DNA of 64,000 bases, taken from Alphaproteobacteria bacterium bin98 (GTDB taxonomy: Bacteria > Pseudomonadota > Alphaproteobacteria > Bin98). The translations under genes and the position numbers were made by a program. Positions 57,609 to 61,223 of this stretch are shown here, in pieces. The stretch's first letter is position 1; the number at the start of each line of letters is the position of its first letter. Below the pieces are notes generated by a model, which was given only the letters and a program-made list of their open reading frames with translations, did no database searches and was not told the origin of the DNA. The stretch lies in NCBI GenBank assembly GCA_002238905.1, contig MPNG01000001.1:12599-76598 (forward strand), written 5' to 3'.

Positions 57609-60600
57609 ATGCCAGTAGTGTTGTTCTTATTTTTCATTTCTTTAGAGTCTCAAGGAGCTTGCAAGCCTTGTATGCCAATTAATGAATATCCTAGTGTCAG
57701 CTTATCCCCTACAGTCAGTCTACAGATCTGTGTTTCAAAAACATCCAAATTGGATCCAATGTATAAATATCCTGGACTCCGTCAACAAACCATATTGCAT
57801 GAAATGCAATGTGGTTTGTGGAATCCAATGTATCAATATCCTGGACTCCGTCAACAAACCACATTGCATACAGTGCAGGAAGAGACGGGTCTCCACCTTC
57901 CTCCAGTCCGTCAACAACTATTGTTTTCAAAATGCATGAAAAAATCTTTGCAATATTTGGATTTGGCATATTTAGATGTAGCAGATCAACGAAGGGTAAA
58001 AGCCAAGCAAATAGAAGGAGTATTATTTTGTGCAAAAAGATCCAAATGTCAAACTAAATTCATAAAAAAATCTGTGGAATATTTGGATGTAGTAGAGCAA
58101 CAAGGAGAGCAACGAAGGACAAAAAACCATGAACAAGCTAAAGAAACTGAAACAACACTAGTGTCTCAAACAGAAGCTGATCAACTAGCTGATGTAGAAG
58201 ATGCATGCGATATTGTACTAATGTTTGAAGAAGTTGCGCAAGCTGCTAAACTAGGTGCAGAAGATTCTGCAAGAGAGTCTGAAGCATATGCTCAATACAG
58301 TAAAAGAGCTGCTGAAGCTAAGAAATTAGCTGCTCTACATCCTCGCCAAGTTTGGTTAGAGATTCAAAGGTCTAGGAAACAATATGCTCAAGTAGTTGAG
58401 GCTCGTATTAATCAGGATACTAAAATCAGTGAAATGTTTGCTAAAGTAGTTGCGGGTCGAACTGATCAAGAGACTAGCCTTGCTGAAAAACTTGCTCTAC
58501 AAGATGCGAAAGAAGTTGAGATCGAGAGTAGAGAGACTTACGTAAATGCTCAGAATGCGGCCTTAAAAAGCTATGCCGATGCTGAACAAGCTTTAGAAAA
58601 AGGAAGACTAGCACATCAAGCATTTACGGAAGCGCAAACGCTTGCTAAAGAAGCTGCACAACAGCTAAACGATGCACAACAGGTAAACGATATTAAACAA
58701 GATGCTGAACAAGCTTCAGAAAAAAGAAAACTAGCATATCAAGCATTTACGGAAGCGCAAAATCTTGCTAAAGGAGCTGCAGAACAGGTAAAGAATAAAA
58801 AACAAGATGTTGCATGCGCAGACGAAAAGCGAAAACTAGCGGATGACGAATTTCAACGAACTCAACTTCTTCTTGAACAAGCTAATGAACAAGTACGCAT
58901 TTTGAAACAAGATGCTGAATGCGCAGATCAAAAGAGAAAACGAGCGTATCACGCACTTCAACAAGTTCAATTTCTTCTTAAAAAAACTACTAAAAAAGTA
59001 CGCCTTGAAGCATCTGCTCAACAATATCAACTAGCGCTTGCAGAATTTACGGAAGCTCAAACTCTTGCTACACACACTGAACAAGAGGTGAACAATATTA
59101 AACAAGATGCTGCATGCGCAGATAAAAAGAAAAAACTAACGGATTACGAATTGCAACACACTCAATTTCTTCTTGAACACGCTAGTGAACTAGTACGCAT
59201 TTTTAAACAAGACGCTGAACGCGCAGATCAAAAGAGAATACTAGCGTATCAGGAACTTCAACCAATGCCATGGCTTCTTACAAAAGCTACTGAACGATTA
59301 CGCCTTGAAGCATCTCGTCGACAAGATGAGGAACAACGAGCGCATCAAGAATTTATAAAACGTCATGAGCTTGCTATAGAAGCTGCACAAAAGCTGAACG
59401 ATATTAAACAAGATGCTGCATGCGCAGATAAAAAGAAAAGACTAGCGTATCACGAATTTCAACACGCTAAATGTCTTCTTGAACACGCTAGTGAACTAGT
59501 ACGCATTTTTAAACAAGACGCTGAACGCGCAGATCAAAAGAGAATACTAGCGGATGACAAGTTTCAACAAACTCAATTTCTTCTTGAAAAAGTTAGTGCG
59601 CAAGCACGCCTTGAAGCATCTGAGCAACAATATCAACTAGCGCATGAAAAATTTACGCAAGCTCAAGCGCTTGCTACAAAAGCTGCACAAAATGATATTA
59701 AAGATGCTGCAAGAGAAGCTCAAAAGAGAATACTAGAGTATAATGAATTTCAACAAGCTAAATTGCTTCTTGCAAAAGCTACTGAACGAGTACGCATTTT
59801 GAAACAAGATGCTGCACGAGAAGATCAAAAAAGAATACTAGCGTATCACAAATTTCAACAAGATAAATTGCTTCTTGCAAAAGCTACTGAACCACTACGC
59901 CTTGAAGCATCTCGTCGACAAGATGATGAACAACGAGCACATCAAGAATTTATGAAACGTAATAAGCTTGCTATGGCAGCTACTGAAAGACTTTACCAAA
60001 ATAACAAACTAACTCAGGAAACGCTAAAAAAATTGATGCAAGATGAGCAACTAACGGAAAAATATTCTAAACGAGTTGCGGTACGAGATGCTGAAGCTAA
60101 GAAAGTAACTGAACTAGATGCTAAACAACTTTCGGAGCTAGATGCTATACAGTTGGCTCAAGAGCGTCATTTGCAAAAGAAGAAATTAGTTTTGCAAGAG
60201 CGTGCACGAGATGCCGTACGAGCAATGCAATCTAAGAAACTAGCTGAAGCATGCATGAAACGAGCTGTAGAACGATCTTATGAGCTATCTTCTAAACCAG
60301 ATACGCAACGATCTGCTAAACGGATTACAGAAGATCACAAAAAACTAGAAAAATCTGCCGCACTATCTGCGCAACGATCTGCTACACGAATTGCAGAAGA
60401 TCTAAAAAAATCTGCTCAACAAGATGTATGCCCTCATACAAGTGCGGTGATTCCTTTATTGCAAGCCATCACCGGAAAAAGAAAATCTTCTGCATCTTCA
60501 GATTCACCCTCTCATACAAGTCCGATCATTGTCCGCGCTTTATCCAACAGTATTCACCAGCAACAACAATTTCAGAAAGCTGAGCGGGTACGAGCTGCGA

Positions 60601-61223
60601 ATATGCAAGTGACGATGGCAAGATCTATACAACTAGATAAGGAAAGAAAGGAGCTCCAAGATATGCAAAACTCTAACGCAGCTATAATCGCATTGCACAG
60701 AGTGACACACGCGAGTAGGCTGTTTGCAGAATCTGTAGAACAAGAAGCTAAGCAATCCATGCTAGCTTATGAAAAATTGAGGCGAGCTCATCAAATAGCT
60801 GAAAAATACAAACTATATTCGCAAGGTTATAAACTATGTGAATATTTTGAGCCAGAGTTTGAATATTTAGCGCAAAAGGTTGAACAAGCGCATGCACGAA
60901 AAGAGCAAGATCAGCAGCGCGCTAAAACATCGACGCAACAAGCTTTACAAGATGAAAGACTAGCTAGAGAAGCCATTACAAGATTTGAGGCAACAGCCTC
61001 TGCACGAGTACAAAATTGGGCGCGCGCTGAAAAATCTATGCAAGCTAATCGTTATAAACATAAGAAAATCCTTTCTGAACCTAAGAACCATGAGCTTTCT
61101 GAACCTAAGCGCTGTGACGACAGAAGCTTCACTCCACCTAAGCGCCGTAACGACAGAAGCTGCTCTCAACCTAAGCGCCGTAACGATAGAATCCGCTCAA
61201 CCATTAGAGCAACGATGTGTTGA
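57609..61223 (+). CDS. Very large secreted coiled-coil repeat protein (1204 aa)
   Basis: It has leader MPVVLFLFFISLESQGA. The N-terminus has a 23-aa tandem repeat (PMYKYPGLRQQTILH). There are about 10 imperfect repeats of KQDA(A/E)(C/R)AD(K/Q)K(K/R)xLAYxEFQxxxxLLExAxExVRI. It is a strongly alpha-helical charged sequence with a basic, repetitive C-terminus (PKRRNDRS x2). Confidence 0.7.
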   Translation: MPVVLFLFFISLESQGACKPCMPINEYPSVSLSPTVSLQICVSKTSKLDPMYKYPGLRQQTILHEMQCGLWNPMYQYPGLRQQTTLHTVQEETGLHLPPVRQQLLFSKCMKKSLQYLDLAYLDVADQRRVKAKQIEGVLFCAKRSKCQTKFIKKSVEYLDVVEQQGEQRRTKNHEQAKETETTLVSQTEADQLADVEDACDIVLMFEEVAQAAKLGAEDSARESEAYAQYSKRAAEAKKLAALHPRQVWLEIQRSRKQYAQVVEARINQDTKISEMFAKVVAGRTDQETSLAEKLALQDAKEVEIESRETYVNAQNAALKSYADAEQALEKGRLAHQAFTEAQTLAKEAAQQLNDAQQVNDIKQDAEQASEKRKLAYQAFTEAQNLAKGAAEQVKNKKQDVACADEKRKLADDEFQRTQLLLEQANEQVRILKQDAECADQKRKRAYHALQQVQFLLKKTTKKVRLEASAQQYQLALAEFTEAQTLATHTEQEVNNIKQDAACADKKKKLTDYELQHTQFLLEHASELVRIFKQDAERADQKRILAYQELQPMPWLLTKATERLRLEASRRQDEEQRAHQEFIKRHELAIEAAQKLNDIKQDAACADKKKRLAYHEFQHAKCLLEHASELVRIFKQDAERADQKRILADDKFQQTQFLLEKVSAQARLEASEQQYQLAHEKFTQAQALATKAAQNDIKDAAREAQKRILEYNEFQQAKLLLAKATERVRILKQDAAREDQKRILAYHKFQQDKLLLAKATEPLRLEASRRQDDEQRAHQEFMKRNKLAMAATERLYQNNKLTQETLKKLMQDEQLTEKYSKRVAVRDAEAKKVTELDAKQLSELDAIQLAQERHLQKKKLVLQERARDAVRAMQSKKLAEACMKRAVERSYELSSKPDTQRSAKRITEDHKKLEKSAALSAQRSATRIAEDLKKSAQQDVCPHTSAVIPLLQAITGKRKSSASSDSPSHTSPIIVRALSNSIHQQQQFQKAERVRAANMQVTMARSIQLDKERKELQDMQNSNAAIIALHRVTHASRLFAESVEQEAKQSMLAYEKLRRAHQIAEKYKLYSQGYKLCEYFEPEFEYLAQKVEQAHARKEQDQQRAKTSTQQALQDERLAREAITRFEATASARVQNWARAEKSMQANRYKHKKILSEPKNHELSEPKRCDDRSFTPPKRRNDRSCSQPKRRNDRIRSTIRATMC

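Follow-up and report, generated by a model that had tools for sequence, protein, structure and literature searches.

We analyzed a 64,000-nt stretch of contig MPNG01000001.1 from an alphaproteobacterium (the window; positions are counted from its first nucleotide, and the strand is given as + or -) and focused on a gene at 57609..61223 that encodes a protein of 1204 aa. The best explanation of the data is that this is a functional, lineage-restricted gene of a sponge-living alphaproteobacterium, and we put the chances at slightly better than even that its product is an exported coiled-coil fibre of a lineage-specific secretome. The gene and the parts of its product are as follows.

57609..61223 (+), coding sequence of the 1204-aa orphan protein, with a mature form of ~137 kDa (136.8 kDa), a pI of 9.25 and a net charge of +35
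57609..57656 (+), leader, aa 1-16, MPVVLFLFFISLESQG, with a putative signal-peptidase I cleavage after Gly16, then ACKPC
57657..58196 (+), N-terminal region (head), aa 17-196, with 7 Cys and 16 Pro plus Gly
58572..60008 (+), heptad-patterned repeat core, aa 322-800, in 14 units of 29-41 aa (modal length 35)
60009..61070 (+), C-terminal helical regions, aa 801-936 and 976-1154, with a Ser/Pro-rich linker between them (aa 937-975)
61071..61220 (+), basic tail, aa 1155-1204, net charge +7, with an 11-aa unit repeated three times

The 1204-codon reading frame is a real, intact gene

The first-pass annotation of this DNA, which was made from the letters alone, had called an open reading frame (ORF) of 1204 codons at this position, and our analysis confirmed it as a real, intact gene. 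Given the base composition of the gene itself, in which a stop is expected about every 15 codons, a frame of this length would be open by chance with a probability of ~1e-35, and the longest ORF in the other five frames across the same interval has at most 112 codons. Translation starts at the earliest possible start codon after a stop, and upstream of the ATG, TGTATAAT and an AGAGG ribosome-binding site were recognized by eye only. A scan for promoters and terminators near the gene gave counts not above those of shuffled sequences. Six independent assemblies of sponge metagenomes, taken from ENA, JGI and NCBI, encode the identical protein; among them is GCA_026710745.1, where it is recorded as 'MAG: hypothetical protein OXC30_00505 [Alphaproteobacteria bacterium]'. 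Five of the six assemblies were 99.95-99.99% identical to the window at the DNA level, and the remaining one, L002, was 99.8% identical upstream and 99.97% identical downstream of a deletion described below. The 90% identity cluster of the protein has one member, and no repeat-number variants are recorded.

An ORF of 167 aa (60985..61488, +) overlaps the 3' end of the gene in another frame, and the NCBI record has a 124-aa gene there. Its repeats (LNLSAVTTEA...) are the tail repeat of the 1204-aa protein read out of frame, and for this reason it is probably spurious.

The protein carries a putative export leader, a cysteine-containing head and a basic tail

The leader is uncharged, and its core, VVLFLFFISL (10 residues), begins at residue 3 and is followed by Ser at -3 and Gly at -1, giving a cleavage site of the Ser-x-Gly|Ala type that reads S-Q-G|A by eye. 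Both a hydrophobic core near the N-terminus and small uncharged residues at -3 and -1, as expected of a substrate of Sec and signal peptidase I, are thus present. Since the leader is the sole hydrophobic segment of the protein (the top 19-residue hydropathy, 1.32, lies at the N-terminus), a cleavable leader is favored over a membrane anchor. It is a divergent version of a leader common to ~30 ORFs of the window, and this conservation in neighbouring genes, together with the leader anatomy, suggests putative Sec export and cleavage after Gly16. A lipoprotein was considered and rejected, as the residues S-Q-G-A-C up to Cys18 (with Q at -3 and G at -2) misfit the lipobox [LVI][ASTVI][GAS]C. The consensus of the leader family has no lipobox either, the residue before its Cys being I, T, L or F.

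For the head (~180 residues), a low-confidence AlphaFold2 (AF2) model showed almost no regular structure except for two short helices. The head contains two copies of a 23-aa tandem repeat (aa 49-71 and 72-94; 57753-57890), DPMYKYPGLRQQTILHEMQCGLW and NPMYQYPGLRQQTTLHTVQEETG, whose DNA is 91% identical (57754-57808 compared to 57823-57877, at a spacing of 69 nt), and a motif KKS[LV].YLD[LV] that is duplicated at a spacing of 42 aa (57930-57962 and 58056-58088). At the other end of the protein, the tail units read EPKRCDDRSFT, PPKRRNDRSCS and QPKRRNDRIRS and are encoded by a 33-nt unit in 2.7 copies (61102-61191); the last 25 residues carry a net charge of +6, and such a basic tail is unique among the leader proteins of the window. 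The signal peptide, the degenerate 23-aa tandem repeat and the basic repetitive tail that the first-pass annotation had described were all borne out, the first of them as a leader of the export type.

The repeat core is predicted to be a long helix of the coiled-coil type

Autocorrelation of the protein sequence over aa 321-800 gave a main peak at 35 residues and secondary peaks at 100-102, and Tandem Repeats Finder (TRF) detected arrays of 105-nt units as well as a unit of 300 nt repeated 4.2 times at 58724-59973 (78% matches, score 1311). The units are laid out as A(35)-B(34)-C(29-33) super-repeats of ~100 aa, which are present in ~4 copies and are preceded by two related units. The 45-aa period and the ~600-aa extent first proposed for these repeats were therefore both wrong, the repeat region covering ~480 aa, and the long heptad-like coiled-coil region claimed along with them was supported by the predicted helix, the seam enrichment and the scarcity of Pro and Gly reported here.

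The modal unit of 35 aa corresponds to exactly five heptads. In the consensus of nine A and B units, the register 4/7/11/14/18/21/25/28/32/35 was 78% hydrophobic (with Ala counted) compared to 28% elsewhere, and no alternative register came near it. Across aa 321-800 the hydrophobic enrichment at positions a and d was 0.48, versus 0.25 +/- 0.03 in shuffled sequences, and the register ran unbroken over unit borders for 70-105 residues per run. A first Fourier test restricted to large hydrophobic residues gave no 3.5-residue peak, while the heptad signal was visible once Ala was counted, indicating that the seam is Ala-rich; it also has one Lys or Arg core position per unit. Pro and Gly numbered zero to two per scanned segment across aa 393-800.

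An AF2 model of the full mature protein (single sequence; predicted local distance difference test, pLDDT, 47) made aa ~197-1154 nearly all helix (~950 residues), and a model of the fragment aa 316-812 (pLDDT 67.6) had helices of 39, 104, 28, 42, 109 and 140 residues. The C-terminal 230 residues were predicted as helix followed by the unstructured basic tail. The C-terminal helical region has two further duplications, one of 22 aa (60287-60344 and 60353-60410) and one of 26 aa (60422-60452 and 60500-60530). With a sustained a/d periodicity and, in the models, long uninterrupted helices, both of which are expected of a coiled coil, the repeat core is predicted to be a heptad-patterned long helix of the coiled-coil type. 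From the continuous hydrophobic seam we infer that such helices should pair or bundle, in some oligomeric state, into a long coiled-coil rod.

Units of 34-35 aa also fit the lengths of TPR and PPR motifs, and ~100 aa, the length of the A-B-C super-repeat, is the size of a spectrin repeat, so that the core might instead be a TPR/PPR/Sel1-like solenoid or a row of spectrin-like three-helix bundles. However, no Pfam match to TPR, PPR, Sel1 or spectrin was found even at E up to 5, there are no Gly/Pro turn residues between units, the heptad register continues over their borders, and the AF2 helices reach 100-140 residues rather than ~15 or ~30; we consider a fold of this kind very improbable. As specific candidates, the TPR/PPR/Sel1 solenoid was rejected because it had no profile match and no turns and the helices cross several units, and the spectrin repeat (~106 aa, PF00435) because it had no profile match and has helices only a third to a quarter as long as those predicted here.

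The repeat copies diverge while the frame and the heptad seam are kept

The repeat families and the TRF arrays show that in-frame tandem duplications, which occurred repeatedly and in no fewer than five places, enlarged the gene. Nei-Gojobori dN/dS between four copies of the A+B repeat (67 codons each) ranged from 1.6 to 3.1 in all six comparisons. These values come from few sites and from non-independent pairs, and the copies may have undergone gene conversion. Relative to the repeat consensus there were 87 differences, which fell 33/33/21 on codon positions 1/2/3. The divergence of the copies thus does not bear the signature of ordinary purifying selection. When equal numbers of substitutions were placed at random, all four copies remained free of stops in only 2% of trials. 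Lys, Gln and Glu, whose codons each lie a single change away from a stop, account for 30% of the protein. The diverged copies have also retained the a/d seam. The simplest reading is that selection acts for an open frame and an amphipathic helix and that the exposed faces are free or favored to change. The copies diverge mainly by amino-acid-changing substitutions, with the frame and the seam preserved.

The same dN/dS values and the near-uniform spread over codon positions would be seen if the gene were drifting without function, for instance as a recently expanded repeat ORF decaying like its neighbours. The lack of homologs agrees with this as well, and so does the neighbourhood, where one leader ORF is truncated, one leader gene is broken by a nonsense codon, and a leader stub and a transporter gene fragment are also present. 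On the other hand, all 1204 codons are open in spite of the large share that is one step from a stop, the stop-free probability under random substitution is 0.02 for just four 67-codon copies, and the diverged copies have preserved their seam. We therefore regard drift without function as improbable and retain the reading of a functional gene.

No relatives of the protein were found

In order to find relatives of the protein, we searched sequence, profile and structure collections. The protein matched only itself in a word-indexed search of 5.8 billion proteins and in an exhaustive phmmer (HMMER) search of 1.84 billion cluster representatives. Pfam gave nothing credible at E cutoffs of 0.01 and 5, whether searched with the complete sequence or with three fragments of it, and there was no match in an NCBIfam scan, among PDB sequences at E up to 1 or, by megablast, in a plasmid collection. 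The model of the full-length mature protein was too poor for a fold search and that of the repeat fragment was better; Foldseek found no match in the PDB, and fold searches otherwise returned just generic long helices. Within the window, all-against-all blastp detected no paralog, and the 148-aa neighbour, which was considered as a relative, proved unrelated on comparison.

An autotransporter or trimeric autotransporter adhesin was rejected, as neither a translocator barrel nor a YadA-type anchor was found with Pfam and NCBIfam, and a SNARE mimic of the IncA/LseA type was rejected because there was no SNARE-family Pfam match at E up to 5 and no anchor beyond the leader. As far as sequence and fold searches tell, the protein is not an adhesin of a known family, an autotransporter, a SNARE-like protein or a copy of a eukaryotic protein. 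The possibility that it is a conventional surface adhesin or autotransporter with recognizable homologs, which the first-pass annotation had named as the finding that would overturn it, was thus checked in Pfam, NCBIfam, PDB and the 1.84 billion proteins, and none was found. Its suggestion that the protein mimics eukaryotic tethering, SNARE or cytoskeletal factors gained no support, there being no eukaryotic similarity, SNARE motif or membrane anchor.

Related to this is the possibility of a translocated effector, mimicking a coiled-coil factor of eukaryotes and perhaps recognized by a type IV system via its Arg-rich tail. In alphaproteobacteria, VirB/D4 substrates carry Arg-rich signals at the C-terminus, the charge of the last 25 residues sets this protein apart from the other leader proteins of the window, and the organism is sponge-associated. 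However, the searches found nothing eukaryotic that resembles the protein, neither a SNARE motif nor a membrane anchor at the C-terminus was found, and the protein has a Sec-type leader, which type IV substrates normally lack. Moreover, neither the 64-kb window nor the 7.6 kb that were read downstream of it contained secretion-system genes. A translocated effector is hence, in our judgement, a poor prospect, and an exported fibre is the reading we pursue below.

About 30 genes of the window share the leader

About 30 of the ~55 ORFs of at least 90 aa in the window begin with a common leader of 15-17 residues, with the consensus M-x-L-I-L-L-F-L-x-C-L-H-x-(H/Y)-G|A, no basic residue, A, V, L, I, T or S at -3 and Gly at -1. 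The leader ORFs, given by start and strand, include 574-, 1771-, 3352-, 5288-, 6859+, 9696-, 9949+, 17083-, 18841-, 19704-, 21754-, 23092-, 23776-, 26136-, 27701-, 30094-, 31501+, 34817-, 36864+, 39591-, 44008-, 46050-, 46445-, 47367-, 56868-, 62649- and 63555-. With a strict leader pattern, there were 20 matches in the 64-kb window and none in 80 other proteobacterial loci that together span 1.43 Mb. The upstream DNA of the leader genes is not conserved between them, indicating that the leader is maintained at the protein level. The leader is short and eukaryote-like, and literature searches found no description of such a leader family for this lineage.

In addition, a local profile detected a novel C-terminal domain of ~90 aa (F.L....F..AF ... 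Y..LL.SF..FC ... Y..W) in ~33 ORFs of the window, sometimes twice in one ORF; alignment A4 holds 28 copies, for example those at 4698-4988 (-), 29510-29809 (-), 10195-10545 (+), 38118-38426 (+), 56110-56412 (-) and 63635-63925 (-). With the profile hidden Markov model of this domain, the 1204-aa protein scored E = 16, whereas nearly all members lay between 1e-8 and 1e-40 and one at 0.003, so that the protein shares with this superfamily only the leader and not the domain. The leader also occurs without the domain in a 726-aa protein and in the two downstream neighbours of the gene, which are paralogs of each other (320 and 277 aa). Profile searches with the family alignments A3 and A4 against the 5.8 billion proteins returned only proteins of this same genome, and none of the leader or domain proteins of the window had a Pfam or NCBIfam match. 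By its leader, the 1204-aa gene is thus one unusually large member of a lineage-specific set. This leader-defined set of orphan genes, which the first-pass annotation had not remarked on, is more informative and notable than the single protein.

A 548-aa leader protein (36864..38510, +) has a low-complexity middle part of Arg-Ala and Arg-Leu dipeptide repeats (RARARARARA, RLRLRARARA), a net charge of +19 and the family C-terminal domain. The genes at 45322..46098 (-), 46639..47415 (-) and 43379..44029 (-) are recent tandem paralogs, two of which encode proteins 83% identical with leaders and upstream 45 nt that are 100% identical, indicating ongoing local duplication in the array.

A duplication beside the gene lies in a region of gene gain and loss

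The DNA upstream of the gene is one copy of a duplication that involves a major facilitator superfamily (MFS) transporter gene, and the elements of this region are listed below.

53651..54856 (+), last of the three tandem MFS transporter paralogs (the third MFS gene), from which the duplicated 3' fragment derives
54637..55007 (+), duplication copy A, comprising 220 bp from the end of the third MFS gene, which is intact here, and 151 bp of downstream intergenic DNA
55072..55209 (+), 45-codon remnant ORF (the stub) with the leader MSLLLFLFFIALDSQG, whose ribosome-binding site, ATG and leader DNA are 79% identical to those of the 1204-aa gene
55529..56095 (+), interrupted leader gene with the leader MILILLFSIALNIYGS from 55529 and an in-frame TAA at 55640-55642
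56092..56886 (-), gene within the 2.5 kb missing from L002, encoding a leader protein of 264 aa that carries the ~90-aa family domain at its C-terminus
57109..57141 (-), remains of a decayed leader (...GASIILICIHIYG*), directly bordering copy B on its left
57119..57379 (+), MFS 3' fragment, an 86-aa ORF of 14 unrelated codons and the last 72 MFS codons (96% identical over 72 aa)
57160..57531 (+), duplication copy B, comprising the MFS 3' fragment and intergenic DNA now upstream of the 1204-aa gene

The segmental duplication reported by the first-pass annotation, including the MFS 3' fragment, is real. The copies are 99% identical between 54637-54936 and 57160-57459 and 98% identical between 54947-55007 and 57471-57531; beyond an indel-rich AT spacer, the similarity of the stub to the 1204-aa gene extends over 55063-55128 and 57600-57665. 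No other leader in the window comes near that of the stub, all others having at most 58% DNA identity to the leader of the 1204-aa gene, and the similarity over ribosome-binding site, ATG and leader links the two. The stub had been recognized earlier as a remnant, which stands, with coordinates (55071..55208) that are one base off. The 86-aa ORF is probably a pseudogene fragment. Between the two copies lie the stub, the TAA-interrupted gene (whose downstream part, in the same frame, is the 148-aa ORF 55649..56095 with a TTG start at 55649), the intact 264-aa gene and the decayed leader.

This arrangement was found in five of the assemblies, while in L002 (ERZ27241798; compared region L002:9300-10200) the intact MFS gene is joined directly to the 1204-aa gene and the 2.5 kb between the copies, with the 264-aa gene, the interrupted gene and the stub, are absent. 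At the L002 junction, the first site that differs between the copies has the variant of copy A and the next five have those of copy B, the pattern expected to remain after a deletion by recombination between the copies; an ancestral single-copy state or a collapse during assembly may also account for it. The L002 flanks differ from the window by 0.2%, and L002 is probably another strain. In each case the 372-bp duplication is a recombination scar in a paralog array of high turnover, and it probably mediates a presence/absence polymorphism of 2.5 kb. For the 1204-aa gene, the duplication supplies the upstream region and is no part of the function of the protein.

The gene array is chromosomal in a divergent sponge-associated lineage

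The replicon is chromosomal, as dnaE, rlmH, alr and the three MFS genes lie in the window, ndk, holC and pepA follow just downstream on the same contig, and no plasmid was matched. The MFS genes are three tandem paralogs of 401 aa (51241..54856, +; 46-50% identical) with overlapping or abutting stop and start codons, located directly downstream of dnaE. The window has a GC content of ~37%. DnaE (47591..51109, +) shared no more than 50% identity with the best 80 loci returned from GTDB species representatives, and the scan of these representatives gave no named close relative; the best 80 loci were also without the leader. This low identity suggests a deep-branching or fast-evolving alphaproteobacterial lineage of low GC. 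The host-associated setting that had been supposed for the gene is plausible, since the identical sequence was found in metagenomes of the sponge Aplysina aerophoba, MKWU01 being an A. aerophoba assembly. Alphaproteobacterium 'bin98' (Slaby et al. 2017), with 1.9 Mb, a GC content of 40.65% and 34% of its coding sequences in COGs, may be the same organism.

Discussion

We propose that the protein is exported across the inner membrane through Sec by virtue of its 16-residue leader and that the leader is cut after Gly16, which would leave a mature basic protein of 137 kDa with a flexible, Cys- and Pro-containing head of ~180 aa and a mostly helical stalk of ~950 aa. In the core of the stalk, the fourteen units of 29-41 residues with their a/d seam would form a long coiled-coil rod, presumably as an oligomer. 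A protein of this kind would most likely have an extracytoplasmic fibrous role, either as a fibre of the envelope or surface or as a released protein, and its exposed faces and positively charged tail might contact host or matrix polyanions. Beyond the single protein, the leader is perhaps a lineage-specific export or targeting signal of a very large orphan secretome in a sponge symbiont with a small genome (~30 genes in 64 kb, and ~33 ORFs with the domain), of which the 1204-aa protein would be the largest and most actively diversifying member, a coiled-coil fibre displayed on or released toward sponge cells or matrix, with leader-to-leader recombination creating, truncating and deleting members. 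We offer this wider picture only tentatively, and rate it below even odds.

Several points weigh against an exported fibre. The n-region of the leader consists of just 'MP', with no Lys or Arg where a positively charged n-region is expected, and a leader of 16 residues without a basic n-region is atypical for Sec substrates of Gram-negative bacteria; most other leaders of the window likewise have no charge in this region. A Sec-type leader alone brings a protein to the periplasm only. Both AF2 models were made from a single sequence and are of low to moderate confidence (pLDDT 47 and 68). The dN/dS above 1 and the near-uniform changes over codon positions also fit relaxed constraint, and the population is clonal and hence gives no population-level sign of purifying selection. 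Host contact, drawn from analogy, is the weakest step.

For the same reason of the leader, the protein may be a structural component inside the envelope, for example a long coiled-coil spacer or tether between the membranes that has no direct contact with the host. The protein showed neither a translocator domain for the outer membrane nor a lipobox or sorting motif, and a long helical rod would suit a spacer. Housekeeping proteins of the envelope are normally conserved, however, whereas this protein has no homologs, its repeats diverge at dN/dS above 1, and its gene lies within a fast-turnover array of orphan leader genes, all of which fits better with exposed, fast-evolving proteins. We thus think a periplasmic role unlikely and favor an exported fibre.

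Taken alone, the protein would be one further orphan among the many exported, repeat-built coiled-coil proteins of host-associated bacteria, a useful candidate though an unsurprising one. It is, however, the largest product of a dense gene block with one unusual leader and no relatives outside the lineage, and the neighbouring duplication provides a concrete, datable case of how such arrays gain and lose members. If the leader marks a dedicated secretome, these genes are where one would look first for how a bacterium with a reduced genome persists in a filter feeder that eats bacteria, and localization with antibodies could start from the 1204-aa protein as a tractable target.

Several known systems can be compared to these findings. 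Chlamydia IncA and Legionella LseA are coiled-coil effectors that act as bacterial mimics of SNAREs or tethers, and like the 1204-aa protein they are proteins of host-associated bacteria with heptad-repeat helices. In contrast to them, the 1204-aa protein has no SNARE-type domain, no anchor beyond the leader and no eukaryotic homolog, and its leader is of the Sec type, where those effectors have a type III or type IV signal.

The phytoplasma SVM proteins and the mycoplasma Vsp/Vlp proteins combine a conserved signal peptide with variable, often repetitive mature parts. The window set belongs to another phylum and has another leader, which is just 15-17 aa long without a basic n-region or lipobox, and no Pfam entry was matched, including SVM_signal. 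The organism also has an outer membrane, unlike those bacteria, so that a Sec leader alone gives no release to the host. What the two have in common is a large number of genes with a near-identical leader and differing mature parts in a reduced, host-associated genome, together with frequent tandem repeats, clustering of the genes and turnover by recombination.

The closest likeness of the 1204-aa protein itself appears to be to repeat-built fibrous coiled-coil surface proteins and to the stalks of trimeric autotransporters, although it falls outside both groups because it has no anchor or barrel domain. The stalks of trimeric autotransporter adhesins (YadA, NadA, EibD) are similar, and it is this anchor or barrel that the 1204-aa protein lacks. 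Streptococcal M proteins and pneumococcal PspA are fibrous coiled-coil surface proteins made from in-frame tandem repeats. There is no sequence similarity to them, the bacterium is a Gram-negative alphaproteobacterium, an LPXTG or choline-binding anchor is absent with the basic tail in place of a wall anchor, and the 35-aa unit is organized in 100-aa super-repeats. By analogy, the 1204-aa protein would nevertheless share with them an N-terminal export leader, a heptad rod built from tandem-repeat blocks, and a rapid diversification of the repeats in which the heptad seam is kept.

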